The position numbers and the translations under genes were made by a program. Below the pieces are notes generated by a model, which saw only the letters and a list, made by a program, of their open reading frames with translations, had not been told where the DNA came from and searched no databases. From positions 1,701 to 65,700 of the forward strand of contig CAZCAQ010000003.1 in the NCBI GenBank assembly GCA_964496905.1: DNA of 64,000 bases, written 5' to 3'. Every line of letters starts with the position of its first letter. Within the stretch, counting starts at the first letter, position 1. Source of the stretch: an uncultured Candidatus Saccharibacteria bacterium (GTDB lineage Bacteria > Patescibacteriota > WWE3 > UBA101185 > UBA10185). Shown here piece after piece: positions 3,805-48,413 of this stretch.

Positions 3805-4929
3805 ATGAAAATAACAATTGTAATACCTACATACAACGAGGCTGAAAATATTGAGCGCCTCATTCCAATTCTTGCGCAAGAGTTTAAAAAGGCACCTCAA
3901 CACCAGTTTACCGTTTTAGTGGTTGATGCCAATTCTCCCGATGGTACTGCGCAAAAGGTTCGTGAGCTTTCAATACACTACCCATTTGCTCAAGTTTTAG
4001 TTGAGACTGAAAAAAACGGCCTTGGCGCTGCGTATGTTTTTGCATTTAAACATGTTTTGGCAAATATTCCTTCGGACGCTGTTATTGAGATGGATGCGGA
4101 CTTTCAGCACAAACCTTCAGATGTTCTTAAGCTGGCCGAAAAGGCTGACGAAGGTTACGACTATGTAATTGGTTCCCGCTTTATAGAAGGTGGAAGTATT
4201 CCAAAAGATTGGAGCTTGTATCGAAAGTTAATAAGTAAAGGTGGCAATATTTTTTCAAGCATAGTTTTAGGCATTAGAGGCGTCCATGACTATACTTCTG
4301 GATTTAAGCTTACAAAAGTTCAGGGTGTTTTAGATAAAATGGATCTAGATAACATAATGTCAAAAGGCTTTGCTTACAAAATTGACCTTTTATACAAAGC
4401 CAAAAAGGTTGGAGCTCGCATTGGAGAAGTGCCTATTGAATTTGGTTTGCGTGACAGAGGGGATTCCAAAATGGAAAAAAATAATTTTATGGATTCGCTT
4501 AAGGTTGTAATAATGCTGCGTATGAACGAACACCCTTCTTTTTACAAGTTCTTAATGGTAGGTTTTGCGGGACTGGGCACAGATATAATACTATTTAATA
4601 CATTCCGTCTTTTTATGGCTTCGGGATATGCGAGCGCACTTGCGGGGCTTTTTGCAATGTGCGTAACTTATACTCTTAACAATTTTTGGTCGTTTAAACA
4701 TCAAAAAAAAGAATCAAGATGGCTCTTTTTGCGTGACTTTCCAGTTTATGCAATCAGTTCGTACATTCCCATAGTATTTAGAAGTCTTCTTGTTGGTTGG
4801 TCCGAAGAAACTTTTGGCAAAACATTTCTTGTAGACAATATTGCCTTTTTTATAGGAATTTCTTTTGGTCTAATTTGGAACTACACCGTATATAGCAGAG
4901 TAATTTGGAGGAAGAAAAAAGCAGCTTAG
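3805..4929 (+). CDS. GT2 polyprenol-phosphate glycosyltransferase (DPM1/dolichol-P-mannose synthase-like) fused to a C-terminal GtrA-like membrane domain
   Basis: N-terminus IVIPTYNEAENI...VVDANSPDGT...MDADFQH (GT2 DxD). C-terminal about 120 aa FLMVGFAGLGTDIILFNT...NNFWSFKH is typical of the GtrA family. Confidence 0.8.
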   Translation: MKITIVIPTYNEAENIERLIPILAQEFKKAPQHQFTVLVVDANSPDGTAQKVRELSIHYPFAQVLVETEKNGLGAAYVFAFKHVLANIPSDAVIEMDADFQHKPSDVLKLAEKADEGYDYVIGSRFIEGGSIPKDWSLYRKLISKGGNIFSSIVLGIRGVHDYTSGFKLTKVQGVLDKMDLDNIMSKGFAYKIDLLYKAKKVGARIGEVPIEFGLRDRGDSKMEKNNFMDSLKVVIMLRMNEHPSFYKFLMVGFAGLGTDIILFNTFRLFMASGYASALAGLFAMCVTYTLNNFWSFKHQKKESRWLFLRDFPVYAISSYIPIVFRSLLVGWSEETFGKTFLVDNIAFFIGISFGLIWNYTVYSRVIWRKKKAA

Positions 4930-4972
4930 CCAGTTTGGCTTTTTGGCGCTGTTGCGGTAAAATTACCGGGAT

Positions 4973-5734
4973 ATGGACGAAGGAATTAACTATTCTATTG
5001 TAATACCTGCCTACAACGAAGAAGGCGGAATTACGGCTTCTCTGACCCAAGTCATGAACTATATGAGCTCATTTGACCCTCTTTTTGAGGTTATTGTTGT
5101 TGATGACGGCAGTGCCGATTCTACGGCTCAAAAAGTGCAAGATTACGCACAGTATCACCCTGAAATCACTTTAATAAAAAATGCCCACAAAGGTAAAGCA
5201 GCTACTGTAACAGCTGGAGTTCTGGCTGCGCAGGGTAAGTATATTCTTACGGCTGATGCAGATATGGCAACGCCAATTGATGAGCTCAAGCGCTTTGTTC
5301 ATTGGATTGAAGACCATGATTACGACATAGTTATTGCTTCCCGTGAAGGCGCTGGCGCCAAAAGGCAAGGTGAGCCACTTTTTAGGCACGTAATTGGACG
5401 TGTTTTTAACTTGATGGTAAGACTAATTGCAGTTCCACAATTTTCAGATACTCAATGTGGATTTAAACTTTATACAAAAGAAACTGCACATGATATATTT
5501 TCTAGGCTAATAGTTTATAAAGATCAAGATAAAGTTTTAAAAAAGGCTTTTCTTGGTGCTTTTGACGTTGAAATTATTTTTATAGCTTTAAAGCGTGGCT
5601 ACAAAGTTAAATCTGTCCCTGTCACGTGGACATATATTAAGACCACAAGGCTTAATTTTTTGGAAACATCTGCCAAAATGGCAAGAGATGTTGTTAAAAT
5701 TCGCTTAAATGGTCTGAAAGGAGCCTATAAATGA
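4973..5734 (+). CDS. GT2 glycosyltransferase (polyprenol-phosphate sugar synthase-like)
   Basis: YSIVIPAYNEEGGI...VVDDGSADST...ADADMATP motifs. Confidence 0.8.
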   Translation: MDEGINYSIVIPAYNEEGGITASLTQVMNYMSSFDPLFEVIVVDDGSADSTAQKVQDYAQYHPEITLIKNAHKGKAATVTAGVLAAQGKYILTADADMATPIDELKRFVHWIEDHDYDIVIASREGAGAKRQGEPLFRHVIGRVFNLMVRLIAVPQFSDTQCGFKLYTKETAHDIFSRLIVYKDQDKVLKKAFLGAFDVEIIFIALKRGYKVKSVPVTWTYIKTTRLNFLETSAKMARDVVKIRLNGLKGAYK

Positions 5735-7089
5735 ATTTATGTGTAATAGGAACGGGGTATATTGGATTAGTTGGAGCAGCAGTTTTTTCCGAGTGGGGAA
5801 ATAACATTGTAGGTGTTGATATTGATCAGGCAAAAATTGATCAAATTATGTCAGGCGATATGCCTATTTTTGAACCTGGACTTGAAGAAGTTGTAATGAC
5901 TAACATTAAAGAAGGTCGTTTAACATTTACAACTGACTTAGCAACAGGCATGAAAGATGCCGAAATTATTTTTATTTGCGTGGGAACTCCTCAGAGCGAT
6001 AGTGGTGCTGCAGACTTAAATGCTGTAGAAACCGTCGCAAAGCAAATCGCCGCACATTTAGATTCTTACAAACTTATTGTTATAAAAAGCACAGTGCCAG
6101 TTGGAACAAATGAGCACGTTCGGGAACTTATAACCCAAAATTTAAAATCACCTGTTGAATTTGGCGTCGCCTCAAACCCGGAATTTTTGCGCGAAGGTTA
6201 TTCTGTTGATGACATGAGAAACCCAGACAGAACAATTATTGGCTCAGATTCACAAAAAGCACTGGATATACTAAAAAAACTTTATTCTCACTTAACTACG
6301 CCAATTGTCGAGTGTGACTTTAGGTCGGCTGAACTTATTAAGTACGCTTCTAACGCCTTTTTAGCCACAAAGATCTCGTTTATAAACGAAATTTCTCAAT
6401 TGTGTGATAAGTCAGGCGCTGATGTTAGTGTTGTTGCTCAAGGCATGGGTCTAGATACGCGAATTGGGCCCAGGTTTTTGCAAGCAGGAATTGGTTATGG
6501 CGGAAGCTGTTTTCCTAAAGATGTAGCAGCCCTTTATAAAACTTCTACTGACCAAGCTTACGATTTTAAACTTTTAAGAGGCGTTATGGAAGTTAATGAA
6601 CGCCAAAGAAAGTTTTACTTTCACAAAATTACAAAAGCTCTAGGAAAAAACCTTAGCGGCAAAACTTTTGCTGTCCTAGGTTTGTCCTTTAAAGAGGCGA
6701 CCGACGACATTAGAGACTCTGTAGCCCTTGAAGTTGTAAAAATGCTTAGAGGTGCCGGTGCCGACATTAGGGCTTTTGATCCCGCCGCAATGGAAAACTC
6801 AAAATCCCAACTAGGCGATCAAGGGATTTACTACGCTACTTCAATTGAAGATGCCCTAAAAGGTGCTGATGCACTCTGCATATTAACTCCTTGGGATGAA
6901 TTCAAAAATCTTGACGTTTCCACTTTACAAAATCTTTCTACAAAAATGATATTTGATGGAAGAAACATTTTGGACAAGAAGGTAGTTCAAGACGCAGGCT
7001 TAGTTTATTTTGCAATTGGAAAAATAACTAACGGAAGCAAACTTATTGCAGAAAAACCTGCCTCGGCAGTTCTAAATGGAAAAAACTAG
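5731..7089 (+). CDS. ugd: UDP-glucose/GDP-mannose dehydrogenase family enzyme, most likely UDP-glucose 6-dehydrogenase
   Basis: N-terminal Rossmann IGTGYIGLVGA. Catalytic Cys region GYGGSCFPKDV. 452 aa. Confidence 0.8.
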   Translation: MNLCVIGTGYIGLVGAAVFSEWGNNIVGVDIDQAKIDQIMSGDMPIFEPGLEEVVMTNIKEGRLTFTTDLATGMKDAEIIFICVGTPQSDSGAADLNAVETVAKQIAAHLDSYKLIVIKSTVPVGTNEHVRELITQNLKSPVEFGVASNPEFLREGYSVDDMRNPDRTIIGSDSQKALDILKKLYSHLTTPIVECDFRSAELIKYASNAFLATKISFINEISQLCDKSGADVSVVAQGMGLDTRIGPRFLQAGIGYGGSCFPKDVAALYKTSTDQAYDFKLLRGVMEVNERQRKFYFHKITKALGKNLSGKTFAVLGLSFKEATDDIRDSVALEVVKMLRGAGADIRAFDPAAMENSKSQLGDQGIYYATSIEDALKGADALCILTPWDEFKNLDVSTLQNLSTKMIFDGRNILDKKVVQDAGLVYFAIGKITNGSKLIAEKPASAVLNGKN

Positions 7090-8317
7090 CAATAAGCGTA
7101 TTTTAGTTGTAATACCGCAGTTTCCAAAGCTTACTGAGACGTTTATTGAGCGTGACGTTTCAACTTTAGCTGAGTTTGAAAACACAGATATTACTGTTTT
7201 TTCGCTTCAACAAGGTAAGGCCTATTTATCTCCAAATTTAGAAAATCGAGTGGTTTATAAGCGTTTAGGCATTGGAGATGTACTAGTTGCTGTTTTTACT
7301 CAGTGTTTAGTAAAACCCAAAACTACGATAAATGTGCTTAAAATGTCCTTTTTAAAGGATAAGTACGATTCTCAAAACCCTATTAAAAAAGTAATACTTT
7401 TGCTCAAAGGGGCTGTGTATGCTCAGGTTTTTAGCAAATATAATCCACAAGAAATTCATGCACATTTTTTATCCGACATTTCCACTATTTGTATGGCTGC
7501 TGCTGAGTTTTTACAAATCCCATTTAGCCTAAACGTGCATGCAAAAGACGTATTGGTAAATCCTTCCATGCCGGTGGTAAAACTTAAAAAAGCAAAATTC
7601 ACAGCAGTGTGTAATAGGTACGCTTTTAACAGGCTAACGGAAATGGCAAAAGGACACACTAATTCAGTTCATCTTATTTATCACGGTCTTGATGAAAAAA
7701 GGATGGAAGTAGCAGATCTGGCATTAGTTAAACCTAACAGGCCCCTAATTTTTTTGCTCGTTTCTCGCTTGGTTGAAAAAAAAGGTCTGGAATACATGCT
7801 TGAAGCCTCGCGCATTCTACTTAATCGTGGCTTTGATCACGAAGTAGCAATTATTGGTGCCAACGACCCTTCTAGCCCAGTTAACATGTACGAAAAATAT
7901 AAAGCTGAAATTAATGATCTAAAAATGCAAGATGTTATAAAAATTATAGGTGAAGGTAAGGGAGTTCCTTTTGAAGAAGCAAAGCAGTACTACAAAATTG
8001 CCGATATTTTTGTTATGCCCAGTATTTCAGCAGGAAGTGGCGACGCAGATGGCGTTCCTAACACAATAATTGAGGCGGCCCTTTCAAAATTGCCAATTGT
8101 TGCAACCGATGCAGGGAGCATAAAGGATCTTTTAAACCCGCAAAATTCCATTTTAATTCACCAAAAAAGCGCTCAGGACATTGCAGATGCAATTGAAAAG
8201 CTTATGTTGGATCCGCAACTTAGGGATTCTTTAGGAAAGCGCGCCTACTACGATGCCAAAGAAATGTTTTCTTCTGCCCGCAACGTTAATATTTTGCATA
8301 AATTGCTGTTAGAATAA
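7076..8317 (+). CDS. GT4-family (GT-B fold) glycosyltransferase
   Basis: C-terminal E-x7-E-like region GVPNTIIEAALSKLPIVATDAGS. Confidence 0.75.
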   Translation: MEKTSNKRILVVIPQFPKLTETFIERDVSTLAEFENTDITVFSLQQGKAYLSPNLENRVVYKRLGIGDVLVAVFTQCLVKPKTTINVLKMSFLKDKYDSQNPIKKVILLLKGAVYAQVFSKYNPQEIHAHFLSDISTICMAAAEFLQIPFSLNVHAKDVLVNPSMPVVKLKKAKFTAVCNRYAFNRLTEMAKGHTNSVHLIYHGLDEKRMEVADLALVKPNRPLIFLLVSRLVEKKGLEYMLEASRILLNRGFDHEVAIIGANDPSSPVNMYEKYKAEINDLKMQDVIKIIGEGKGVPFEEAKQYYKIADIFVMPSISAGSGDADGVPNTIIEAALSKLPIVATDAGSIKDLLNPQNSILIHQKSAQDIADAIEKLMLDPQLRDSLGKRAYYDAKEMFSSARNVNILHKLLLE

Positions 8318-8321
8318 GTAC

Positions 8322-9518
8322 GTGCGCATTGCTGTATTTGTAAAAGGAACAATATTTCACTCTCAATACGGAGGCCTTGAAACGCAAAACCAGGCTTTAT
8401 GCCAAGGTTTAAGCCAAAAAGGTCATGAAATCCACATTTTTTCACCTAAAAAAGACGTTACAGAAAGCGAAAAAACTTCCAATTCTTTGCATTACCATTT
8501 TGTAGAGTCAAAGTTTAAAATGGGGCTAATTTTAGGCTTTTTTGGCTTTTTAGACAAAAACAATTGGGTAAACAGATCCTATGAAGAATTTGTCAAAACT
8601 GAAAAGTCAGGTCATTTTGACGTTATTATTTCACAAAGTACCGCTGGTATTGGCATTATAAAGCACAAAGAGGATCATAATTTTAAGTCAATTATGGTAG
8701 CCCACGGATCAATTTTATCTGAATACAAAACATATTTAAGAGAAATTAAGCTTACACAATTAAAAAATGCAGTTTTGCTAACTAAAAACACAGCTTTTGC
8801 CTTAAAAAATTTTTTTACTCGCCAAAGAGAATGTGTATTAAATTCGACAAAAATTGTAGCTGTTTCTACTTTTGTAAAAAAAGCCCTAATTGACGAAACA
8901 TTTGCTCCAGAAGAAAAATTTGTAGTTATTAACAATGGGATCGAACTTCCTAATTTTGACCTAAAATTTAAAAATTACAACAAAACTATGTTTTTTGCGG
9001 GAAGGCTGGAAAAATCAAAAGGTGTTGATATTTTGCTTTTGGCCTTAAAAAGTGTTTTTTTAGAGCATCCTGACGCAAAGTTGGTAATTGCTGGAAAAGG
9101 TCCTGAAGAAGAAAATCTTAAGATGCAGGTTCAAACCTTAGGAATTGATAAAAACGTGCACTTTGCGGGATGGGTTGAAAAAGACGCATTAGCCAACCTT
9201 TACAAAGAAGCGAGTATATTTGTACTTCCAACAATACGCCTAGAAGGCTTTCCAATGACCTTAGTCGAAGCTTCGGCCTATGGTTTGGCTTTAGTTGCCT
9301 CTGATATTGGTGGAAATGCAGACGCTATAAAAAACTCAGAAAATGGTTTTTTGATACAAGCAGGAAATATCAACCAGCTGTCAGATACTTTGGCTAATTT
9401 ACTAAGCAATGCTGAACAAATTAAAGCCTTTGGCCTTGCCTCAAGAAAGTCTTTTGATCACAACTTCACTCGCGATATAATGGTAGATAAGTATAACTTG
9501 GTTTTGCAAAAACTATGA
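8322..9518 (+). CDS. GT4-family glycosyltransferase
   Basis: EGFPMTLVEASAYGLALVASDIGG motif. N-terminal GT-B domain. Confidence 0.75.
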   Translation: MRIAVFVKGTIFHSQYGGLETQNQALCQGLSQKGHEIHIFSPKKDVTESEKTSNSLHYHFVESKFKMGLILGFFGFLDKNNWVNRSYEEFVKTEKSGHFDVIISQSTAGIGIIKHKEDHNFKSIMVAHGSILSEYKTYLREIKLTQLKNAVLLTKNTAFALKNFFTRQRECVLNSTKIVAVSTFVKKALIDETFAPEEKFVVINNGIELPNFDLKFKNYNKTMFFAGRLEKSKGVDILLLALKSVFLEHPDAKLVIAGKGPEEENLKMQVQTLGIDKNVHFAGWVEKDALANLYKEASIFVLPTIRLEGFPMTLVEASAYGLALVASDIGGNADAIKNSENGFLIQAGNINQLSDTLANLLSNAEQIKAFGLASRKSFDHNFTRDIMVDKYNLVLQKL

Positions 9519-10708
9519 AAATATTAAGAATTTCTTACGAGTGGCCTCCTCCTTGGATTGGGCTAACTCCACACATTTATGAAGTCACAGCCCACCAGGC
9601 CAAAATGGGGCATTTTATTCACGTTTTTTGTGCTAGGTGGTTTAAAGCCGGTGATTTAGAGACTTTGCCAAACACCAGATTACACACTTTTTTCCGCGAA
9701 CCGCTTCCAGGCACCCTTTTTTTTACAGTTGGGCCGTTGCTACTGCTTTATTACTGGATGTGGAGGTGTTTAAATACTCCAGACATTATTCACATGCACG
9801 GTCATTTTGGATATTGGATTCTTGTGTATAGAAATTTTTTAAGGTCTATTAAAAAAAAGAACTTTGAAACCAGAATCCCGCTTGTGGTTCATTTTCACAA
9901 CAATGCACAGGAGCGTTGGGACAAAATGAAAGAGGCCGGCACTAAAATAAATTGGTATTCGTCAAAAATTTCATATCCCATGGAAATTAGGGCAAATAAG
10001 CTCGCTATTAAGCTCGCCGACGCCTACATTTTTGTAAGTGAAGATATGAAAAAAGCCGCTATAAATTTGTATGGTGCCGATGAGTCCAAATGTTATGTTG
10101 TAGAGTCAGGAGTTAATACCGAAATGTTTACTCCCGTAGATATGAACGAACGCGACAAAACCCGAAAAGAACTTGGGCTAATTTTTACAGACCGTGTAAT
10201 TGTAAATGTCGGTTTTATTAAAGAGCGAAAGAATATTCATTTGCTTGTTGAATCACTTGTTAAGCTACCTCCCGAATACAAGTTAATTTTAATGGGCGAT
10301 GGAGATGCTGATTATATTGAAAAAATTGATGAATATGTGCGTGATCACAAACTAGAAACTAGAGTAATTAGAATTGGCGCCTCTTCCTATAAAGAAGTGC
10401 CCTTTGTTATGCAAATCTCAGATGTTTTTGTTTTACCGTCGTCTTACGAAGGTTTATCTAAAGCAGCACTCGAAAGTTTGGCTTGTGGAGTTCCCGTTTT
10501 GTACTCTGGCTCTACCTTTAGCCAAGAAATTCAAGGATTAACATACTTAAAAGAAATTACTCAACAATCAATTGCCGACAATATTAAACAAATTGTCGAA
10601 TCCAAGCCTTTTGTAGACATTGGCAAAATAAAGGCACTTTATTCATGGGTACGGAAAGTTGATGAAATTGAAAAGGTATATGACAAAGTTAAAAACACTA
10701 CTAATTAA
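9515..10708 (+). CDS. GT4-family glycosyltransferase
   Basis: EGLSKAALESLACGVPVLYS motif. Confidence 0.7.
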   Translation: MKILRISYEWPPPWIGLTPHIYEVTAHQAKMGHFIHVFCARWFKAGDLETLPNTRLHTFFREPLPGTLFFTVGPLLLLYYWMWRCLNTPDIIHMHGHFGYWILVYRNFLRSIKKKNFETRIPLVVHFHNNAQERWDKMKEAGTKINWYSSKISYPMEIRANKLAIKLADAYIFVSEDMKKAAINLYGADESKCYVVESGVNTEMFTPVDMNERDKTRKELGLIFTDRVIVNVGFIKERKNIHLLVESLVKLPPEYKLILMGDGDADYIEKIDEYVRDHKLETRVIRIGASSYKEVPFVMQISDVFVLPSSYEGLSKAALESLACGVPVLYSGSTFSQEIQGLTYLKEITQQSIADNIKQIVESKPFVDIGKIKALYSWVRKVDEIEKVYDKVKNTTN

Positions 10709-12218: not shown

Positions 12219-12906
12219 ACTTTCAATAATAATTCCTGTTTATAACGAGCAAAATACTGTAGTACAGCTGGTGGACATAGTTGATAAGGTTGAGCTTAAA
12301 AATATAGAAAAAGAAATAATAATAGTTAACGATGCCTCCAAAGATGAAACTGCACAAAGAATAAAGGAGATTCAACAGGCAAAACCCCATATTAAAGTAT
12401 TTCACCATGAACAAAACCAAGGAAAAGGTGCTGCGTTAAGAACAGGCATAGCTCAAACAACAGGAGATTATGTAATTATTCAAGACGCCGATTTGGAATA
12501 TGACCCCCAAGATTATGTAAAGCTTATTCAACCAATTTTGGCCAATGAGGCTGAAGTTGTTTACGGCTCGCGTTTTTCTGGAAATTACAAAGATATGACA
12601 AATTTGCATTATTTTGGGAACAAAATGCTAACTTTAGTTACCAATATTTTATACGGCGTCATGCTTACCGATATGGAAACCTGTTACAAACTTACTCCTG
12701 GGGAGTTTATTCGCGGAATTAAAATTGGCTCTGACCGGTTTAACTTTGAACCCGAAATAACGGCTAAAATTTTAAAATCAAAACTAAGAGTAATAGAGGT
12801 GCCAATTAGTTATAAGGGACGATCTCATTCTGAGGGCAAAAAAATAACTTGGCGCGATGGAGTTTCGGCACTTTATACACTAATTAAATTTAGGTTTGTG
12901 AACTAA
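12211..12906 (+). CDS. GT2 glycosyltransferase (polyprenol-monophosphate sugar synthase-like)
   Basis: LSIIIPVYNEQNTV...IIVNDASKDET...IQDADLEYDP. Confidence 0.8.
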   Translation: MNKLSIIIPVYNEQNTVVQLVDIVDKVELKNIEKEIIIVNDASKDETAQRIKEIQQAKPHIKVFHHEQNQGKGAALRTGIAQTTGDYVIIQDADLEYDPQDYVKLIQPILANEAEVVYGSRFSGNYKDMTNLHYFGNKMLTLVTNILYGVMLTDMETCYKLTPGEFIRGIKIGSDRFNFEPEITAKILKSKLRVIEVPISYKGRSHSEGKKITWRDGVSALYTLIKFRFVN

Positions 12907-12907
12907 T

Positions 12908-22152: not shown

Positions 22153-22205
22153 TTCTGTTTGTTCAGAATTTATACACTAAACTTCAACGAATTGTTGGCA
22201 TTGAT

Positions 22206-25223: not shown

Positions 25224-25224
25224 T

Positions 25225-27238: not shown

Positions 27239-27289
27239 ACAGTGTAAATATCCAAAAACCCCAAAGTTTTATGATAATATCATTCTGCA

Positions 27290-28300: not shown

Positions 28301-28312
28301 GCTTTTAGTACA

Positions 28313-29470: not shown

Positions 29471-29479
29471 TATTCATCA

Positions 29480-30382: not shown

Positions 30383-30383
30383 A

Positions 30384-31016: not shown

Positions 31017-31036
31017 AGTTACAATTTAGAAAGGAT

Positions 31037-32973: not shown

Positions 32974-32976
32974 CTT

Positions 32977-37907: not shown

Positions 37908-37911
37908 ACAT

Positions 37912-41509: not shown

Positions 41510-41516
41510 TTCCCAT

Positions 41517-42623
41517 ATGCGTATTCTGTACGTTATTAATTCGGGCAATTTTGGAGGCGCCGAAAAGCACATTAAAGACTTGACTCAAGGAATGACCCAA
41601 AAAGGCCATGAAGTCTTTATTTGGTGTCTTGCAGGGCCTATGATTGAGCTTTACAAGGCCGCTGGTGCGCAGGTTACGGCAATCTCTCCCCGTTTTGAAA
41701 TAGACCCTTTTTACGTCCAAAAACTCAAAAAATTCCTAAAAGAGCAAAAAATCGATGTAGTGCATGTTCACGACAAATCGGGTGCAAATGCGCTAATGTC
41801 CGCATATTTGGCAAAAACGCCCGTTCGCGTTAGCAATGTTCATACTCCGCTTTCTCAATGGCAAATAAATCTAATTAAAAAAGCCATAAATTTGGTCGCA
41901 TATTTTTTTGTAACGCGTCTTTTATCTCAACAAGAAATTGCCATTACAAAGGAAGTAAAACGCATAAAAGTGTCTGAAGGCATTCCAGCAAGCAAAATTA
42001 CCGTAATTCCAAATTATGCCGAATTACCCACAAACGCGTCTCACGATAAAAAAGTGCAGTTTTTGCAAAAATGGGTTTTTGTAGACAAACTAGTCATAGG
42101 TGTTGTTGGGCGCACTTCAGCAGAAAAAGGCCAAGATTTGTTAATTAAGGCGTTTTACAAGCTTTCACACGAATTTGATCACATACGTCTTGCAATTATT
42201 GGCGGAGGTCCTTTGCAAGAAAACTATCAAACCATGCTTAAGGAGCTTAAACTTTCAGAAAAGTCCGTAATTACCGGAATTTTCCCTGACGAAGATAAAT
42301 CAACTCTTTTTTCAACCTTAAATATTTTTGTATTTCCATCTCGTGCGGAAGGTTTTGGCTATGTTCCGTTAGAAGCTTTATCTTTGGGAATTCCTGTAAT
42401 TGCATCAGGACTCCCTGTTTTAAAGGAAGTTTTGGGAGAACACGCTATGTATTTTGAGCCGGAAAACGTTGAAAGCCTTCAAGAGCAATTGAGATACGCA
42501 ATTACAAATTATGAGGAACTTAAAAGCCAGCAGGAAGGTACAAACTGGATCATTCAAAAATACGGATTTGAGAAATTTATTAGTTCTTACCTAAATTTAT
42601 ATGAGGAGCTAGCGCGCAAATGA
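41517..42623 (+). CDS. GT4-family glycosyltransferase
   Basis: EGFGYVPLEALSLGIPVIASGLP. Confidence 0.75.
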   Translation: MRILYVINSGNFGGAEKHIKDLTQGMTQKGHEVFIWCLAGPMIELYKAAGAQVTAISPRFEIDPFYVQKLKKFLKEQKIDVVHVHDKSGANALMSAYLAKTPVRVSNVHTPLSQWQINLIKKAINLVAYFFVTRLLSQQEIAITKEVKRIKVSEGIPASKITVIPNYAELPTNASHDKKVQFLQKWVFVDKLVIGVVGRTSAEKGQDLLIKAFYKLSHEFDHIRLAIIGGGPLQENYQTMLKELKLSEKSVITGIFPDEDKSTLFSTLNIFVFPSRAEGFGYVPLEALSLGIPVIASGLPVLKEVLGEHAMYFEPENVESLQEQLRYAITNYEELKSQQEGTNWIIQKYGFEKFISSYLNLYEELARK

Positions 42624-43747
42624 AAGTAGCCTTTTGTGGCAGAACAGACTTGTTTAAATATAAAGGAGGGGATGCCGTACAAATGGAGCAAACGGCAAAA
42701 GAGCTAGAAAAGCTTGGCGTGCACGTTGACATAAAAACTCATTGGGACTTTGACTATGCACAATATGAATTAATTCACATATTCCAGCTGGATTGGGTTT
42801 CGGAAAACTATTTGTATGCAGAGGCAGCGCAAAAAGCGGGTAAAAAAATTGTACTTTCTCCAATTCATCATAATGTAAATGAAGTAAAAGCTTACGATGA
42901 CAATTTTGTATTTGGTTATCGCAGACTTTCGTCCTTGGTATTACGCAATCAATTTCACCGCGATACGCTAAAAATCTTTTACCGAGCTCTTTCCAACCCA
43001 GAAAAACGAATTCCTGCGTTTTACGCAATAACTTATGGACTTAAGAATCTGCACAAAAAAACCATAAAAGCCTCAAGCAAGGTTTTAGTTCAAACTCACT
43101 TGGAAGCCGAAGATTTAAAAAAGGCTTACACCACAGATTTTGAATGGGTTTTAGTTCCAAATGGTGTTGGTGACGTTTTTTTGTCACAACCAGAAATGCT
43201 TAGCAATTTTCTGCCATTTTCTGATTACATTTTAAGCGTAGGCCGTATTGAAGCCCGAAAAAATCAACTTAACATTATTGAAGCGGTAAAAAAACTCCGC
43301 TTACAAACTGGGCAAGACCTTAAACTTGTTTTTGTTGGTCAATTTAGTCTTTCTCATAAAGAGTATACACAGCACTTTAAGGAACAACTTTCGCAAAACC
43401 CATGGATTACTCACATTGAAAAGGTCGACTATGAAAAAATGCCTTCAGTATACAAATTTGCAAAAGTTGCAGTTTCAGCAAGTTGGTTTGAAACAACTGG
43501 ATTAACCAGTTTAGAGGCCTTGTATTGCGGTTCAAATGCTGTTGCATCGGGAAAAAGAGCTAATGAGTTGTTAGGTTCGCAAGTTTCATATTGTGACCCT
43601 TCTAGTGTAGAATCTATTTCAAGCGCCATTTTGACGCAGCTTCAAAAACCAAGACCAGTAATTTCTAAAGATTTTAAAGCACAGTATACTTGGAAGAATG
43701 CTGCTGAAAAAACTCTTAAGGTATATACGGATATAATTGATGAATAA
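42620..43747 (+). CDS. GT4-family glycosyltransferase
   Basis: ETTGLTSLEALYCGSNAVAS. Confidence 0.7.
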   Translation: MKVAFCGRTDLFKYKGGDAVQMEQTAKELEKLGVHVDIKTHWDFDYAQYELIHIFQLDWVSENYLYAEAAQKAGKKIVLSPIHHNVNEVKAYDDNFVFGYRRLSSLVLRNQFHRDTLKIFYRALSNPEKRIPAFYAITYGLKNLHKKTIKASSKVLVQTHLEAEDLKKAYTTDFEWVLVPNGVGDVFLSQPEMLSNFLPFSDYILSVGRIEARKNQLNIIEAVKKLRLQTGQDLKLVFVGQFSLSHKEYTQHFKEQLSQNPWITHIEKVDYEKMPSVYKFAKVAVSASWFETTGLTSLEALYCGSNAVASGKRANELLGSQVSYCDPSSVESISSAILTQLQKPRPVISKDFKAQYTWKNAAEKTLKVYTDIIDE

Positions 43748-46646
43748 TTACGAATTACTTATTGGAATAGCTATTTTTTCAGTGGGATTTTATGCCCTTG
43801 TCAGAGATTTTAAACTCTTTATCTATATTTTGCTCTTTTCAAGCGTTTTAATTCACAAAGAAATGTTTAGCCTGTATATGTGGGACTTTATGCCAATTCG
43901 CTTTTTAATGCTTGCTTTGTCTTTTTATGTAGTTGGGGCCTTCTTTTTAGCACTTTTTACTGCGCTGAGAGAAAGGAATATGCATCAACGACTTGAGTTA
44001 ACTAAAATTTCTCAGTACTTAAGGGATCCTTTTATCATTAGTTTGACTTTGCTCTGGCTAGTAAGAGGTTTTTCTCTAGTGTTTTCAAAAGATATTAGGT
44101 CTAGTGTGGAGCTTTATGCCTTTTTTACATCTATTTATTTGGCATCTCTTTTTATTTACATAAGGTTAAAATCAAGGCCTTTGCACGTTATATTGTATCT
44201 GGATTTTTATATTGCCATTGTTTTTGCACTCTGTATGTTTGGGTTTTTACAATTATTTTTAAGTTCCAATTATAACTTTACTATTGGAGCATTTTGGCAA
44301 ATTCCCGGACATAGCCCACGCGTTGGAAGTCTTTTTTGGGATGTAAATCACTTTGGAGCGTTTATTGCCTCATTATTTTTATACGGATGTGCTAGGTTTT
44401 TGGCAGTTTCAGGCTTAAAACGCAAAATACTTTACGGCATTTTACTTTTGCCAATTCCCATAATTTTGTATTTAACTAATTCACGCAGCTCTTTATTGCT
44501 ATTAATCAGTGCTTCTGCGCTTTTTGGCTTTATTGTATTGTTCAAAAAAATCGGTAACAAAGCTTTTGGCCTTACAGCATTAGTGGCCCTTTTTGCATTT
44601 TTGACCTTTTTTTATACATATTCAGATGAAAACTCTAAAGTTAGCAAGGTTATTCGTAGTAACTTACATTACAGAATTGATTCTTTTGATTCGCACTTTT
44701 TATTGCTATCTGGTGCTTCGGAAGTATTTACAGAAAATCCTATATTAGGAGGTGGCTACGGGAGTTTTTATGCCCAATTTATGGAAACCTCCATTTCATC
44801 AGAATATCTTAGGCGTGATCCAGCTGGTTTATTAACAAAAGTTCCTGCACACACAATTTGGGGTGAGGTAGCTTCTGAAACGGGCATGTTAGGTTTTTCC
44901 GCTTTTCTGTTTTTATGTCTAATAATTACAGCTGTACCTTTTTATAATTTTTTGGTCAGTAACTCGTATAAGGATTATTTAGTTCATGGCGCCATATTTT
45001 CTTCAATAATAGGCTATTTTGTCGCTGGCATATTTTATTCTTATAATTCTGAATTTTTTTGGCTTGTCTTAATTTTATACACAACGTATGGAATAGCAAA
45101 ATTGATTCAAAACATGCCTGTTGTAATTAATAATCCAAATCCAAGCTTTACCTTTGGTTTGTTAAAAAAGGCAGTAATGTTTATTGAAGTTAAAATAAAC
45201 GCAGGATTTATTTTACTTGGACTTTTAACATTTTCATTAATATTTATAAATTTGGGGAAAAACACTTTAATTACATGGGACGAAGCAATATACGGAAAAA
45301 TTGCTAAAAATATTGTTCAAACAGGTGAGTGGTTAACTTTGCAATGGAAGGTAGGTTCCACTTGGTTTGAAAAGCCCCCACTTTACTTTTGGTCAACGGC
45401 ATTTTTTATGAAAATCTTTGGTATAAACGAATTTGCAGTTAGATTAACAAGTGCGCTTAGTGGCTTTGGTTCTATTATGGTTTTAACCTACTTTGCAAAA
45501 AAAATATATGGGCGAAGCGTAGGGTATTTAGCAGGATTTATTCTATTGACCACTTTTCAGTTTTTGTATTACGCACGAACCGGCATGCTTGACGTTACTC
45601 TCACTTTTTTTATTACTACTGCTTTGGTAATTTACTTTCTTGGTGCAAAAATGCTTAGGACATTTGTACTAGCGGGTGTATTTGTAGGATTAGCAGTGCT
45701 AACAAAAGGTGTAGTAGGTTTTTTACCTTTACTAATAATACTAATCTTTGAATTAGTTATGTTGCCAAAAACCAAAAAATTAAGCGAACTAGTTAACGTT
45801 TTTTACATTTTTGTATTCTCAGCAATAGTTTTTATGCCATGGCATGCCTATATGCTGGGTTTATATGGTAATAAGTTTTACGACAACTACATTGTTTATC
45901 ATGTTTTGCAACGTGCTTCAACAGCAATTGAAGGAAAAGGCCAGCCCTTTTGGTGGTATTTTGTAGTAATGAAAGTTAGTATGCGCTTATGGTTTTTGGC
46001 ATTACTGGTAGCGCTTCCTTTTACTACCACTTGTGTGTTATTTAGAAAAAAAATGGAGAAGTTTAACTTTTTGTTTTCAAATAATGAGATACGTGGGTTA
46101 ATATTTACATTAGTCTGGTTTATAGTTGTAGCACTTTTCTTTTCATCAGCGATCTCTAAACTTATTTGGTACATAATTCCTATATATGTTCCAGCTGCAC
46201 TGATTTGCGCATTTACAATAGTTGTAATTTTAAGAAACTTTTTCTCAAAGTTTGCTAAAAATATAGTTGATGAAATGGTTTTTGTAACGATCTTTTTTAT
46301 TTTTATGTTCACTTTTACTTACTTTTATGTTGAAAAAGGTCGCGTTTATACAAGTGACTTAAATTATGCTCAGGCCTTTGTACTTAAGCAGTCAAGTGTT
46401 AAGTATCCAAATGAGACTGTGCTTGTCGATAGAATTGAATCCCCAGTCACATTTTACTATCGCGATGGGCCTTATGCAGAAGTTGATTTTCAACAAATCC
46501 GAGCTTCTCTTAGTAAAAGCTCAGAAAAGCCTACAATTTTTATTACTAATAAAAAAAGATTTGTTCAGCTTGAAAAAGAATTTTTGGGACTTTCCAATGT
46601 AGATCAGGCTGGAGATTTTATACTTGCCTATTATCTTAAACAATGA
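43737..46646 (+). CDS. Fusion protein: N-terminal O-antigen-ligase-like (Wzy_C) polytopic domain + C-terminal PMT_2/ArnT-family GT-C domain
   Basis: Residues about 1-450 are multi-TM with a NSRSSLLLLISASALFG...GGGYGSF region typical of the O-antigen ligase/Wzy_C family. Residues about 480-969 have the PMT/ArnT first-loop signature LITWDEAIYGKIAKNIVQTGEWLTLQW...EKPPLYFW (DE motif). Confidence 0.55.
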   Translation: MMNNYELLIGIAIFSVGFYALVRDFKLFIYILLFSSVLIHKEMFSLYMWDFMPIRFLMLALSFYVVGAFFLALFTALRERNMHQRLELTKISQYLRDPFIISLTLLWLVRGFSLVFSKDIRSSVELYAFFTSIYLASLFIYIRLKSRPLHVILYLDFYIAIVFALCMFGFLQLFLSSNYNFTIGAFWQIPGHSPRVGSLFWDVNHFGAFIASLFLYGCARFLAVSGLKRKILYGILLLPIPIILYLTNSRSSLLLLISASALFGFIVLFKKIGNKAFGLTALVALFAFLTFFYTYSDENSKVSKVIRSNLHYRIDSFDSHFLLLSGASEVFTENPILGGGYGSFYAQFMETSISSEYLRRDPAGLLTKVPAHTIWGEVASETGMLGFSAFLFLCLIITAVPFYNFLVSNSYKDYLVHGAIFSSIIGYFVAGIFYSYNSEFFWLVLILYTTYGIAKLIQNMPVVINNPNPSFTFGLLKKAVMFIEVKINAGFILLGLLTFSLIFINLGKNTLITWDEAIYGKIAKNIVQTGEWLTLQWKVGSTWFEKPPLYFWSTAFFMKIFGINEFAVRLTSALSGFGSIMVLTYFAKKIYGRSVGYLAGFILLTTFQFLYYARTGMLDVTLTFFITTALVIYFLGAKMLRTFVLAGVFVGLAVLTKGVVGFLPLLIILIFELVMLPKTKKLSELVNVFYIFVFSAIVFMPWHAYMLGLYGNKFYDNYIVYHVLQRASTAIEGKGQPFWWYFVVMKVSMRLWFLALLVALPFTTTCVLFRKKMEKFNFLFSNNEIRGLIFTLVWFIVVALFFSSAISKLIWYIIPIYVPAALICAFTIVVILRNFFSKFAKNIVDEMVFVTIFFIFMFTFTYFYVEKGRVYTSDLNYAQAFVLKQSSVKYPNETVLVDRIESPVTFYYRDGPYAEVDFQQIRASLSKSSEKPTIFITNKKRFVQLEKEFLGLSNVDQAGDFILAYYLKQ

Positions 46647-47767
46647 AAGTTGCAATAATTCACGACGATTTTATTCAATATGGTGGTGCAGAACAATTGG
46701 TTCTAGCCCTTTGGGAGATATGGCCCAATGCAGTTTTGTATACAAGTTACGTAACTAATGATTGGGCAAAAATTCTTAAAGAAAAAAATATTGAATATAA
46801 AACGTCATTCATGCAAAAGTTGCCATATAAAAAGAAATTAAATAAATACTACGCTGGGCTTATGCTTTATCCCCTTGCCTTTGAGTCATTTGACTTTACG
46901 GGTTTTGATTTGGTGATTTCATCTTCTTCTAGGTTTGCACATTGTATTGTTACAAAACCATCAACTTTGCATATTTCATATATTAATTCGCCAGGACGCA
47001 TGTTTTGGGAGTTTTGGGATTATTTTGAGAACTTTAGTTTTTCACGCCGAAATATTATTAAAAGGCTCTACATAAATTTGTTAAAAGCAGTGGCTAGTTA
47101 TTATAGAACTTGGGACTATTACTCTTCATTTCGCGCCGATTACCTTATTGCTAATTCATCGATTCCTCATAACCGTATTAAAAAATTTTATGACAAGGAA
47201 AGCACAATAATTTATCCATTTGTTAATACAAAATATTTTGAAAATAAACCAAAATCAAAAGCTAACTTTTTTCTTATAATAACCAGGCTGGTTTCGTGGA
47301 AAAAAGTAGATATAGCAATAGATGCTTTTATTAAGAATGGTCAAAATTTGAGAATAATTGGTGATGGCCCAGAACTTCAACCTTTAAAAGCAAAAGCCGC
47401 AGGTTATAAAAATATAGAGTTACTTGGATATGTGAGTGATGATGTGAAAATAGATCTGCTATGTTCATGTTGTGCTTTAATTAACACACAGCTAGAGGAC
47501 TTTGGTATTGCCCCATTAGAAGCTATGGCGGCTGGAAAACCTGTTTTAGCATACGGAAGAGGTGGCGCGCTAGAAACAGTTATAGAAGGAAAAACTGGTG
47601 CATTTTATTACGAACAAACTCCTCAGGCTTTAAATGCCGCATTGGAGACTTTTGATCCTGAGTCTTATTTAGTAACCGATTGTGTTTATCAAGCTCGGCG
47701 CTTTGATAAAGATGTTTTTCTTAGTAAGATCAAAGCCTTTGTTGATAGTGTATACTTAGGGAGCTAA
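46643..47767 (+). CDS. GT4-family glycosyltransferase
   Basis: FGIAPLEAMAAGKPVLAYGRGG. Confidence 0.7.
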   Translation: MKVAIIHDDFIQYGGAEQLVLALWEIWPNAVLYTSYVTNDWAKILKEKNIEYKTSFMQKLPYKKKLNKYYAGLMLYPLAFESFDFTGFDLVISSSSRFAHCIVTKPSTLHISYINSPGRMFWEFWDYFENFSFSRRNIIKRLYINLLKAVASYYRTWDYYSSFRADYLIANSSIPHNRIKKFYDKESTIIYPFVNTKYFENKPKSKANFFLIITRLVSWKKVDIAIDAFIKNGQNLRIIGDGPELQPLKAKAAGYKNIELLGYVSDDVKIDLLCSCCALINTQLEDFGIAPLEAMAAGKPVLAYGRGGALETVIEGKTGAFYYEQTPQALNAALETFDPESYLVTDCVYQARRFDKDVFLSKIKAFVDSVYLGS

Positions 47768-47774
47768 TTCCAAT

Positions 47775-48413
47775 ATGGACTTATACGATTTTTTAAAAAG
47801 AATACTAGATATTGTGGGTGCGCTTGTAGGGCTCCTTATTTTTTCACCAATTTTTGCGGTTGCAGCTGTTTTTATTAAACTTGCATCTCCGGGAGGACCA
47901 ATTTTTGCGGATATACCATCAAGGGTAAGCAGAGGAAAAGAATTTAAAATGTACAAATTTAGATCTATGATTCCAAATGCGCACAATTGGCTTTTGGAAC
48001 ATCCAGAGTGGCATGAAAAGTACAAAGCCAACAATTACAAAATTTCTCCAGACGAAGATCCGCGCTTTATAAAAGGTGCAAAATTTATGAGAAAATATAG
48101 CATTGATGAGCTTCCTCAATTTTTAAATGTTTTGTTTGGCGATATGAGTTTAGTAGGTCCCAGAGCTTACTATCCTTTTGAATTAAAAGAGCAAAGGGAA
48201 AAGTTCCCGGAAGCTGGTCCCTACATTGACGAAGTCTTTCAGATAAAGCCCGGCATTACGGGTGTTTGGCAAGTTTCTGGAAGATCGAGCATTGGTTTTT
48301 TGGAGCGAATAAAAATGGATGCCGGATATGCAAAAAAGCGCTCAATATTGTATGATTTACTAATAATTCTAAAAACGCCGCTAGCGGTGTTGGCTGCTAA
48401 AGGAGCAAACTAA
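47775..48413 (+). CDS. Small polyprenyl-phosphate sugar-1-phosphate transferase (bacterial sugar transferase family; PglC/WbaP-C-terminal type initiating phosphoglycosyltransferase)
   Basis: Single N-terminal re-entrant helix, then PGGPIFADIPSRVSRGKEFKMYKFRSM ... DELPQFLNVLFGDMSLVGPRA, the conserved core of the family. Confidence 0.8.
   Translation: MDLYDFLKRILDIVGALVGLLIFSPIFAVAAVFIKLASPGGPIFADIPSRVSRGKEFKMYKFRSMIPNAHNWLLEHPEWHEKYKANNYKISPDEDPRFIKGAKFMRKYSIDELPQFLNVLFGDMSLVGPRAYYPFELKEQREKFPEAGPYIDEVFQIKPGITGVWQVSGRSSIGFLERIKMDAGYAKKRSILYDLLIILKTPLAVLAAKGAN

Follow-up and report, generated by a model that had tools for sequence, protein, structure and literature searches.

A locus of candidate division WWE3 that pairs cytoplasmic glycosyltransferases with many GT-C enzymes and probably assembles the main envelope glycoconjugate

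The subject of this analysis is a locus of about 46.6 kb within a 64,000-nucleotide stretch of contig CAZCAQ010000003.1 (assembly GCA_964496905.1, positions 1,701 to 65,700), deposited under the name of an uncultured Candidatus Saccharibacteria bacterium. The whole of this stretch is referred to as the window, and positions are counted from its first letter. The organism belongs to candidate division WWE3 (Patescibacteria), and its locus interleaves cytoplasmic glycosyltransferases with polytopic glycosyltransferases of the GT-C fold. It very probably makes one or more envelope glycoconjugates through combined undecaprenyl diphosphate (Und-PP) and undecaprenyl phosphate (Und-P) routes. The reading favored here, with a probability of roughly 0.6, is that the locus is the single main cell-envelope glycoconjugate factory of this bacterium, divided over two compartments and conserved in the lineage. 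The locus is real, conserved, and uncharacterized: its enzymes are of known kinds, their assembly has not been described before, and two of its components, a fusion of a WaaL-like with an ArnT-like half (g36) and a GT-C family outside Pfam (g29), are new as families. No paper describing the locus, the g36 fusion, or the g29 family was found in the literature, in agreement with an earlier note on this DNA, and only general remarks were encountered, such as the richness of WWE3 in glycosyltransferases (Kantor 2013, PMC3812714).

Gene content and conservation of the locus

All open reading frames (ORFs) of the window were scanned against Pfam, the unclear ones also against NCBIfam, and selected proteins were searched against the sequences in the PDB. 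Genes are numbered g3 to g39 in the order of the window and lie on the plus strand unless stated otherwise. Densely packed plus-strand ORFs span positions 3805-51135, with a GC content of 35.5% in the locus and 35.9% in the window. The gaps between plus-strand genes measure at most 64 bp except for a 937-bp spacer between g31 and g33, and start and stop codons overlap frequently. Rfam and tRNA scans of the window returned no matches.

The earlier note, made from the letters and a list of ORFs, had described an uninterrupted run of about 36 same-strand genes at 3805-48413. The plus-strand count is 34, the run is broken by one minus-strand ORF of 362 amino acids (39284-40372), and the proposed boundaries were too narrow, as the DUF4012 gene (48416-50362) and, in the relatives examined, the genes for a CAP-domain protein and a small transmembrane (TM) protein (2520-3797) are fixed at the edges. 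The functional unit reaches at least the end of the DUF4012 gene at 50362. The inventory of enzymes in the note was largely borne out. Domain searches recovered all nine GT4 and six GT2 glycosyltransferases, the UDP-glucose 6-dehydrogenase Ugd with all three of its domains, three class-I methyltransferases, the pair of a ferredoxin and a B12-type radical-SAM enzyme, two Wzx-like flippases, the UPF0104 protein, and the initiating phosphoglycosyltransferase (PGT). Two counts were revised. As many as four GT2, rather than two, resemble polyprenyl-P-sugar synthases. Among the 12 polytopic proteins found by a hydropathy scan of the window, the claim of about ten GT-C enzymes stands for eight, with a ninth probable. 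The pairing of cytoplasmic GT-B and GT-A enzymes with many extracytoplasmic GT-C fed by polyprenyl-P-sugars is supported by the family assignments. The note had also remarked on a large investment for a small genome, and the locus indeed amounts to about 5% of the genome when its 46.6 kb are set against single-contig or complete WWE3 genomes of 0.88-1.11 Mb.

Named homologues of the window proteins were from candidate division WWE3 or Patescibacteria, and identical copies of the window proteins occur in the Logan assemblies made from several sequencing runs. Loci of related genomes are given below by numbers preceded by L. A GTDB-wide scan with a DUF4012 profile yielded 71 loci, mostly titled WWE3, Patescibacteria, or "uncultured Candidatus Saccharibacteria", and these included the complete RAAC2 genome (878,109 bp), a curated complete genome (897 kb), and a single contig of 1.11 Mb. 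The gene order GT4-PGT-DUF4012-RecO was found in every locus that covers these positions, which are nearly all of the 71. The g36 fusion lies no more than 10 kb upstream of this core in about 35 of 40 loci with a full flank. Many of the metagenome-assembled genomes titled "uncultured Candidatus Saccharibacteria bacterium" (L012-L082) carry a WWE3-type core at 50-68% identity, and these labels look loose; in L082, a 138-bp match on a contig labelled Bacteroidales is probably spurious.

A scattering of the genes over unrelated contigs of related genomes, which the earlier note had named as evidence against its proposal, was not observed; instead, gene order is conserved. Within the reach of each locus, L006, L008, and L009 all carry the 3' arm (g31-g33-g34-g35-g36-g37-g38-g39), with identities of 36-77%. 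The order of the 5' arm is kept in three relatives (L010, L083, and a 715-kb contig), on which its synteny rests, and reads CAP, GT2/GtrA, GT2, Ugd, three GT4, g10, GT2, DUF2079, Wzx, UPF0104, three GT-C, and Wzx, with g10 orthologues 37-47% identical. In a distant relative (contig SRR32167788_54593), both arms and the g29/g30 pair share one strand and follow the order of the window, over about 65 kb of which 13.6 kb are unseen. Read from these comparisons, the 5' arm (g3-g18) and the 3' arm (g31-g39) appear fixed in the lineage, and the middle (g19-g30) appears to be a swappable tailoring cassette.

The GT-C enzymes and the g36 fusion

Polytopic proteins were assigned to GT-C by four routes, namely Pfam, transitive homology, profile-profile comparison with hhalign, and predicted structure. 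The candidates have in common an invariant acidic residue soon after the first TM helix (TM1), which is preceded by a K/R-rich N-terminus on the cytoplasmic side, and an acidic residue after TM1 is the hallmark of GT-C enzymes (PMC8035078, PMC11127046). Eight proteins of the GT-C_A class are established in the locus in this way, and a ninth, the DUF2079 protein, is probable.

The first of the two new components is encoded by g36 (43737-46646), a protein of 969 amino acids with a WaaL-like N-terminal half (Wzy_C, GT-C_B) and an ArnT/PMT-like C-terminal half (GT-C_A). The Wzy_C domain was matched over residues 237-391 (1.6e-11; 44.7 bits against a gathering score of 31.7). The C-terminal half matched the Pfam families PMT (2.2e-16) and PMT_2 (6.1e-18), the NCBIfam model ArnT (2.4e-30; 105.7 bits against a cut-off of 567), and ArnT in the PDB (5EZM; 7.6e-21, and 1.8e-42 with a profile of 100 sequences). 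An AlphaFold2 model was confident for the protein as a whole (pLDDT 91.6, pTM 0.92). Foldseek searches with it identified ArnT for the C-terminal half (5e-14) and WaaL for the N-terminal half (7TPG_B; 8.3e-6, probability 1.0, target-normalised TM-score 0.60), followed more weakly by RodA.

More than 120 full-length homologues of g36 were found (38-72% identity), and all of those listed contain Wzy_C together with PMT/PMT_2. Those with names come from WWE3, Patescibacteria, and one member of Saccharimonadales, usually under the product name "glycosyltransferase family 39". Judged by these searches, the fusion would be a new family found mostly in WWE3/Patescibacteria. In an alignment of 100 homologues, residues R250, R313, D315, H320, and H372 were invariant in the N-terminal half and D515, E545, K546, R614, D619, K657, and H703 in the C-terminal half, where E516 was invariant or nearly so. 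In WaaL, two arginines bind the diphosphate of Und-PP and a histidine activates the acceptor (PMC10920833). In the sequence of g36, the spacing of R250, R313, H320, and H372 resembles that of this site.

A bimodular precedent is given by WadA, in which a ligase is fused to a glycosyltransferase that adds the last sugar of the acceptor (PMC10920833). By analogy, g36 looks like an all-membrane counterpart of WadA, in which a lipid-PP-glycan transferase is joined to a lipid-P-sugar transferase. Since no lipopolysaccharide (LPS) pathway has been reported in WWE3 (PMC3812714), the acceptor of g36 must differ from lipid A-core. A role of g36 as ArnT proper was rejected, given the score far under the equivalog cut-off, the lack of arnA/B/D-type domains in the locus, and the lack of lipid A in the candidate phyla radiation (CPR).

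Five further GT-C genes lie in the two arms. In the 5' arm, g15 (17398-19089), g16 (19073-20536), and g17 (20533-22152) follow each other as PMT_2/PMT-type enzymes with Pfam matches of 0.0037, 3.8e-13, and 5.4e-7, respectively. The proteins g15 and g17 are paralogues (BLAST 6e-47), comparison by hhalign with the ArnT-like half of g36 gave 98.4% for g15 and 98.2% for g16, and acidic residues occur in the first loop (D37-E38 in g16 and D51 in g15). The product of g10 (10659-12218), a divergent GT39/83-like GT-C with 10 TM helices, has no Pfam match of its own. It has 266 homologues in Patescibacteria, with PMT_2/PMT domains in about half of those listed, and it reached 95.3% in hhalign against the ArnT-like half of g36. 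E41 and D44 are invariant after its TM1, and a motif E64-K65-RPPL is present. Membership in GT39/GT83 was thus found directly for the C-terminal half of g36, g16, and g17, and only via paralogy, homologues, and hhalign values of 95-98% for g15 and g10. The 480-amino-acid product of g31 (37912-39354), the first gene of the conserved 3' arm, matched PMT_2 (0.0032) and, below the cut-off, the NCBIfam model for the putative glycosyltransferase LA_3751/LA_3752 of Leptospira (4.3e-15). It reached 81.8% in hhalign against g15, has an invariant E35-D36, and has orthologues of 48-61% identity in L006, L008, and L009.

The second new component is g29 (32977-36306), which encodes 1,109 amino acids of a family without a Pfam entry. 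The protein combines an N-terminal polytopic domain, extracytoplasmic alpha/beta and beta-sandwich domains resembling carbohydrate-binding modules (CBM-like), and a C-terminal TM helix. Seven to eight hydrophobic segments fall within residues 1-395, and the AlphaFold2 model shows a helical bundle over residues 2-395. No match to g29 was obtained in Pfam or NCBIfam, and a scan of genome contigs with g29 alone gave no relatives. A word-indexed protein search detected only two homologues, and an exhaustive HMMER search returned 519 cluster representatives (122 of them below 1e-30), with matches mainly covering residues 10-520. When 60 members were searched against Pfam, only stray weak matches to PMT_2, PTPS_related, and GT-C_AftD appeared, the last of these (PF11847) in one member and at 0.0066. 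The family therefore appears to be uncatalogued, with hundreds of members. D41, in a GGDW motif directly after TM1, was invariant in 80 and in 60 family members, and the K-rich N-terminus ahead of it is cytoplasmic.

In searches with the g29 model, AftD was the best match among solved structures, followed by STT3B, AftA, Pmt4, AglB, PglB, ALG12, ArnT, AftB, and PimE. As modelled, g29 is a GT-C enzyme with an AftD-like architecture. Its use of polyprenyl-P-sugar donors is predicted from the DPMS-like synthases in the same locus. Placement of g29 in the AftD family itself (PF11847) was rejected, as it lacks the Pfam match and shares 10% sequence identity with AftD.

The adjacent gene g30 (36303-37907) encodes a polytopic protein of 534 amino acids that is related to the membrane domain of g29, with an hhalign value of 97.2% (E 2.9e-11) over 278 columns against the N-terminal part of g29, and is thereby classed as GT-C. 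Its D9 is invariant, and in L006, L007, and L011 the g30 orthologue adjoins the g29 orthologue on the 3' side. No TM1 precedes Asp9 in g30, whose start codon overlaps the stop codon of g29, and the C-terminal TM helix of g29 occupies residues 1072-1104. The two proteins may work as a pair or derive from a split. A precomputed DUF6311 label on the g30 homologue of L007 (13287-14867) was dropped after a Pfam-A scan gave no match at E <= 0.01.

The probable ninth enzyme, g12 (12908-15016), is polytopic with a C-terminal soluble domain and matches the Pfam family DUF2079 (6.1e-31), which we take to be a member of the Pfam GT-C clan. D47 and D52 follow directly after its TM1. Its assignment to GT-C is probable on the strength of this acidic motif and the presumed clan membership.

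Synthases, flippases, the variable middle, and the flanks

The lipid-P-sugar synthases are spread over the 5' arm and the beginning of the middle. The clearest of these is g4 (3805-4929), a polyprenyl-P hexose synthase with the domains Glycos_transf_2 (2.7e-25) and GtrA_DPMS_TM (3.7e-14), which aligns over its full length, including the TM domain, with the Pyrococcus furiosus DPMS (5MLZ; 6.6e-43). Three shorter GT2 are candidates for the same activity. These are g5 (4973-5734; Pfam GT2 1.1e-31), with DPMS 5MLZ (2.6e-17), ArnC, and GtrB as best PDB relatives and an NCBIfam ArnC match below the cut-off (1.2e-20); g11 (12211-12906; Pfam GT2 1.3e-35), a soluble protein of 231 amino acids matching AglJ below the cut-off (1.3e-33) and DPMS in the PDB over residues 3-224 (1.6e-18); and g19 (23452-24210), a short DPMS-like GT2 by Pfam with DPMS as its best PDB match (3.8e-13). 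For all three, the closest solved relatives are DPMS 5MLZ and then ArnC and GtrB, and the best NCBIfam matches (AglJ, ArnC, PpgS, PgfS) stay below equivalog cut-offs. They are candidate lipid-P-monosaccharide synthases. The remaining two GT2, g20 (24207-25223; two C-terminal TM helices and an NCBIfam MftF-like match of 3.7e-27, below cut-off) and g23 (27290-28300; Pfam, with orthologues in L006 and L007), look like ordinary membrane-associated GT2 enzymes.

Ugd (g6, 5731-7089) matched three UDPG_MGDP_dh domains (1e-66, 2e-37, and 7e-32) and is the predicted source of UDP-glucuronic acid. It is followed by three of the nine GT4 enzymes of the GT-B fold, g7, g8, and g9 (7076-8317, 8322-9518, and 9515-10708; Glycos_transf_1/Glyco_transf_4, 1e-23 to 1e-42). 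Candidate flippases at the locus are the GtrA_DPMS_TM domain of g4, the TIGR00374-type protein g14, and two Wzx-like proteins. The gene g13 (15013-16497) encodes a Wzx-type flippase of the MOP group with 12 TM helices, above the Pfam cut-off (Polysacc_synt_3, 1.1e-22), and g14 (16494-17438) encodes a flippase-like LPG_synthase_TM/UPF0104 protein (Pfam 1.3e-35; TIGR00374 5.1e-17, above the NCBIfam cut-off). The second Wzx-like protein, g18 (22206-23462), also has 12 TM helices and falls just under the cut-off (Polysacc_synt, 8.8e-6), yet its orthologues in L010, L083, and the 715-kb contig match PF01943, and those in L010 and the 715-kb contig match PF13440 as well.

The variable middle differs in content among relatives. 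In the window, g21 (25225-25482) encodes a single-cluster ferredoxin of 85 amino acids (Fer4_13, 3.7e-9), and g22 (25547-27238) a radical-SAM enzyme (Radical_SAM, 5.1e-15) with a B12-type N-terminal domain matched weakly. The best NCBIfam matches of g22 are HpnJ (1.2e-41) and BchE (7e-22 over residues 34-479), both below their cut-offs. The enzyme has the cysteine motif Cx4Cx2C, compared with the canonical CxxxCxxC, and is 76% identical to the copy in L006 (920-2629), against 34-60% for the surrounding orthologues. This excess suggests unusually strong constraint or a recent cassette exchange. A radical-SAM enzyme thus occurs in the middle of both the window and L006, accompanied by the ferredoxin in the former and by a sulfotransferase in the latter (3338-4234, opposite strand). 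In L007 (3861-5424) and L084 (3828-5398), the middle includes a GHMP kinase and a SIS_2 isomerase, a heptose-type pair, together with an unknown protein of about 730 amino acids. The pair g29/g30 is missing altogether from L008 and L009. The other genes of the middle in the window are the GT4 genes g24 (28313-29470; Pfam, with orthologues in L006 and L007) and g28 (31744-32973; Glycos_transf_1, 8.2e-24), and g25-g27 (29480-31786; starts 29480, 30384, and 31037), which encode SAM-dependent methyltransferases (Pfam Methyltransf_11/23/25) with orthologues of 50-72% identity in L006 and L007.

In the 3' arm, three GT4 genes recognized by Pfam, g33, g34, and g35 (40292-41509, 41517-42623, and 42620-43747), have orthologues of 36-71% identity in L006, L008, L009, and many GTDB loci. 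Downstream of g36, a further GT4 gene, g37 (46643-47767; Glycos_transf_1, 1.4e-25), adjoins the PGT gene and is present in all related loci covering its position. The PGT itself (g38, 47775-48413) has 212 amino acids and matches Bac_transf (6.3e-52) and, over the catalytic domain, the NCBIfam model EPS_sugtrans (4.7e-65). The DUF4012 protein (g39, 48416-50362; 2.3e-20) has one N-terminal TM helix and a large extracytoplasmic domain. This domain family is overrepresented in CPR and Gram-positive bacteria, and it also occurs in an exopolysaccharide (EPS) cluster of Bifidobacterium (PMC6744442). About 11 kb downstream of the locus, on the minus strand, an LCP (LytR-CpsA-Psr) ligase gene (61576-62601) stands beside the mraZ-rsmH-PBP genes (57124-60568). 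Relatives keep the neighborhood of glycan locus, RecO, GlyRS, and dcw genes.

The minus-strand ORF that interrupts the locus, g32 (39284-40372), encodes a soluble ORFan of 362 amino acids at the junction of g31 and g33 and overlaps the conserved ends of both. No family, NCBIfam, PHROG, or PDB match was found for it. Two minus-strand ORFs at this junction in L008 (5490-6498), the closest relative, show a weak collinear similarity to it, and L006 and L011 lack it. An independent (Logan) gene caller also predicted it in L003. The idea of a spurious ORF was rejected, given 362 open codons at about 38% GC, with an estimated chance of about 1e-10, together with the independent call and the weak collinear relatives. 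In L009, the junction holds an unrelated plus-strand gene (3197-4123), and further relatives lack a spacer. The junction appears to be a hot spot of rapidly evolving cargo, and g32 is probably not part of the pathway.

At the 5' edge, g3 (2520-3476) encodes a membrane-anchored protein with a CAP/SCP domain (Pfam CAP, 7.7e-21), and L001, L010, L083, and the 715-kb contig have it in the same position. The protein is anchored in the membrane at both ends, and its poorly conserved linker consists of 32-34% S/T/P. A role of g3 as a glycosylation substrate is conceivable from this weak signal. Between it and the first GT2 lies a gene for a small membrane protein of 98 amino acids (3501-3797), with a counterpart in L001/L002 that weakly matches DUF5656 and an 84-amino-acid gene at the same place in L010. 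Further upstream, an ORF cut by the start of the window carries an LPG_synthase_C domain alone; it has 286 amino acids in L001 and is also found near the locus in L083. It is followed by a minus-strand methyltransferase and by a 6-TM protein without a family (133-834 and 831-2500).

Proposed function, alternatives, and known systems

From what is known of these enzyme families, a pathway can be proposed in which the PGT g38 would prime undecaprenyl phosphate on the cytoplasmic face, and the nine GT4 with two or more GT2 would lengthen a lipid-PP-oligosaccharide, with glucuronic acid supplied through Ugd. Sugars could be tailored by the three methyltransferases and by the HpnJ/BchE-like B12-type radical-SAM enzyme with its ferredoxin, before a Wzx flippase exports the glycan. 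In a parallel route, up to four DPMS/GtrB/ArnC-like GT2 (g4, g5, g11, and g19) would load single sugars onto polyprenyl phosphate, with the GtrA-like domain of g4, the UPF0104 protein, or both as candidate flippases for them. Outside the membrane, the eight or nine GT-C enzymes may add branches or extend chains from these lipid-P-sugars, and the CBM-like domains of g29 may retain the glycan during its growth, in the manner of AftD and Emb. The WaaL-like half of g36 would ligate or polymerize the lipid-PP-linked glycan, and its ArnT-like half would add a lipid-P-derived sugar to the same acceptor or product in a WadA-like coupling. The final steps of glycan handling or attachment to the wall may fall to the DUF4012 protein and the LCP protein encoded nearby.

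Several points weigh against a single factory of this kind. Product, donor sugars, and acceptor are all putative, and the activity of the WaaL-like domain of g36 may be that of a ligase, of a polymerase, or of a protein O-oligosaccharyltransferase. The Wzy_C domain of g36 is the sole Wzy-like element, as no dedicated Wzy was found, and no Wzz/polysaccharide co-polymerase or tyrosine kinase domain was present in any ORF scanned with Pfam. The g36 fusion does not occur in the 10-kb upstream flank of L037 (RAAC2), L038, L052, L058, and L062. The relation of g12 to the other GT-C enzymes reached at most 31% in hhalign, and a profile search of the PDB gave no relative for it. Flippase roles of the UPF0104 protein and the GtrA-like domain are putative in this lineage. 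The 5' arm lacks a PGT, and its product might be a different one, anchored in lipid. Finally, the tight gaps and overlapping start and stop codons make one or two long operons plausible, a structure predicted from gene spacing. As a separate observation, L037 (CP006914.1, RAAC2_WWE3_1, 123810-145627) contains the core GT4-PGT-DUF4012-RecO, and the fusion may lie elsewhere in this genome or be absent.

The alternative that survives best, which we nevertheless consider unlikely, places two pathways side by side. The 5' arm, with Ugd, three GT4, polyprenyl-P-sugar synthases, flippases, and five GT-C, would produce a lipoglycan similar to the corynebacterial and mycobacterial lipomannan/lipoarabinomannan (LM/LAM) on a glycolipid anchor, and the 3' arm a separate Und-PP-linked wall polysaccharide. 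Specifically, the GT4 enzymes of the 5' arm would make a glycosyl- or glucuronosyl-diacylglycerol anchor, following the logic of the corynebacterial glucuronic acid-diacylglycerol anchor, and five GT-C enzymes would extend it outside, while the PGT, GT4s, WaaL-like domain, and DUF4012 protein would form the other pathway. The distribution of parts in the window is consistent with such a division, as the PGT is missing from the 5' arm and a Wzx from the 3' arm, the arms are parted by the variable middle and each is conserved as a block, and g29 is AftD-like. In L009 and L011, an extra Wzx inside the 3' arm would make this arm self-sufficient. However, the 3' arm of the window would need to borrow a Wzx from the 5' arm, neither an acyltransferase nor an enzyme specific for an anchor was identified, and throughout the lineage the two arms remain next to each other, with strand and order unchanged (37-47% identity).

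General protein O-glycosylation is a still less probable explanation. Under it, the WaaL-like domain would be an O-oligosaccharyltransferase of the PglL/WsaB type passing the lipid-PP-linked glycan en bloc to S-layer, pilin, or other surface proteins, and the PMT/ArnT-like GT-C enzymes would modify Ser/Thr directly with polyprenyl-P-sugars as donors, as do actinobacterial Pmt or streptococcal Pgf. The Pfam family Wzy_C spans both ligases and O-oligosaccharyltransferases, g16 and the C-terminal half of g36 retain the D-E motif of PMT type after TM1, the proteins g4, g5, and g11 match the PgfS model below its cut-off, and the 5' edge has a fixed membrane protein whose linker is rich in S/T/P. 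Moreover, CPR bacteria lack LPS, which excludes a lipid A acceptor, and have a Gram-positive-like envelope with pili (PMC6744442, PMC3812714), and a glycosylated S-layer was raised as a possibility by Kantor 2013 (PMC3812714). In contrast, no target protein was identified, and the S/T/P content of the CAP-protein linker is a mere 32-34%. The LCP ligase and DUF4012 point to wall polymers, the CBM-like domains of g29 suggest a glycan rather than a peptide acceptor, and nine GT4 imply a long or polymeric glycan.

Lastly, an ordinary Wzx/Wzy capsule or EPS locus beside unrelated membrane proteins, with the GT-C richness as an annotation artefact, would account for the standard parts (PGT, Wzx, Wzy_C, GT4, and GT2) and for the several polytopic proteins with absent or sub-threshold Pfam matches, but it is largely refuted and very improbable, as the polytopic proteins are tied to GT-C by independent routes with an invariant acidic residue after TM1 in all, and their genes are interleaved with DPMS-like synthases in synteny across the lineage.

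A bolder reading, which we hold to be doubtful, is that the bulk of the wall or surface polymer is built outside the membrane by a relay of at least nine GT-C enzymes, supplied with several polyprenyl-P-sugars, on a primer set by the bifunctional g36, a mycobacterium-style line that arose, or was retained, independently in CPR. If this were true, the line would include an uncatalogued GT-C family (g29/g30) and a radical-SAM-modified sugar, either C-methylated or ring-contracted. Given a locus that is fixed in genomes of <1.1 Mb, the episymbiotic lifestyle would then depend on the polymer. The CPR/Patescibacteria make up a large share of bacterial diversity and live with minimal genomes attached to other cells, and their envelope chemistry is barely characterized. 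A lineage-wide locus of 46-65 kb, or about 5% of the genome, places an elaborate surface glycan among the functions that these organisms cannot give up. Surface types that differ from strain to strain, and specificity for hosts or phages, could stem from the swappable middle cassette. In glycobiology, the range of polymer synthesis by extracytoplasmic GT-C enzymes, which is best known from mycobacteria, would be widened to an unrelated phylum, and candidates for new CAZy families would be gained.

Among known systems, the N-terminal half of g36 shares with WaaL (GT121) the Wzy_C domain and a WaaL-like model and keeps invariant Arg/Arg/His residues in a long outer loop, and it shares with WadA (GT121+GT25, PMC10920833) the fusion of a ligase domain to a glycosyltransferase. 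The partner in WadA is a soluble GT25, whereas in g36 it is a membrane GT-C_A, and unlike for both ligases the host has no LPS, so that the acceptor is not lipid A-core. ArnT (GT83) and PMT (GT39) are sequence relatives of the C-terminal half of g36, g16, g17, g15, and g10, with shared D-E and EKPP motifs. However, the locus lacks the ArnA/B/C/D aminoarabinose genes, lipid A, and MIR domains, and its NCBIfam scores are far below equivalog cut-offs. The slg clusters of Gram-positive bacteria and the Agl clusters of archaea are similar in having a PGT-initiated lipid-linked glycan, methyltransferases, a Wzy_C-type transferase, and AglJ/AglD-like synthases (g11 against AglJ, 1.3e-33). Those clusters measure 15-25 kb and contain zero to one GT-C besides the oligosaccharyltransferase, and no S-layer gene was identified here.

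In scale, the closest systems are those for mycobacterial and corynebacterial arabinogalactan and LM/LAM (Ppm1, AftA-D, EmbA-C, MptA-C, and PimE), with AftD as the best structural match of g29. The earlier note had invoked a mycobacterial logic for the whole locus. This holds for g29, which models as an AftD-like GT-C with CBM-like domains, and fails for the decaprenyl-P-arabinose genes and a PMT with MIR domains, which are absent. Among the window ORFs scanned with Pfam, no DPPR synthase (UbiA-type prenyl/PRPP transferase) or DprE1/DprE2-like domain was detected. The WWE3 locus also differs from the mycobacterial systems in an identity of about 10% to AftD, in having no arabinose route and no galactan or mycolate machinery, in an unrelated (CPR) lineage with a genome four to five times smaller, and in a PGT/Wzx/WaaL-like module that is not used in this way in mycobacterial pathways.

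The closest functional scheme is that of the three- and multi-component systems (GtrA-GtrB-Gtr*, CsbB-GtcA-YfhO, GtsABC, CsdAB/CD/EF, and GacI-L; PMC8035078, PMC11127046). Such multi-component transmembrane glycosylation modifies the O antigens of Gram-negative bacteria and the wall teichoic acids, lipoteichoic acids, and wall polysaccharides of Gram-positive bacteria (PMC8035078, PMC11127046). The contrast drawn by the earlier note between this locus and ordinary O-antigen or capsule loci was therefore too sharp, as this kind of glycosylation is already known and a conventional PGT/Wzx/Wzy_C core is present. The three-component systems consist of a GT2 polyprenyl-P-monosaccharide synthase, a small flippase, and a GT-C with an acidic motif, and all three types of parts occur here. 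The synthase is represented by g4 (against DPMS, 6.6e-43), the GT-C enzymes by the eight or nine interleaved nearby, and the candidate flippases by a GtrA-like domain fused to the synthase and by the UPF0104 protein. The secondary cell wall polysaccharide of Bacillus anthracis likewise joins Wzx/Wzy assembly to a system of the three-component type. In contrast to the known systems, which are single triplets or pairs, often scattered, and add one side-chain sugar, up to four synthases and eight or nine GT-C enzymes are gathered here in one conserved locus of 46 kb, which implies extracytoplasmic synthesis on the scale of a backbone. The two-compartment logic is hence that of the known multi-component transmembrane glycosylation scheme, scaled up, rather than a new principle.

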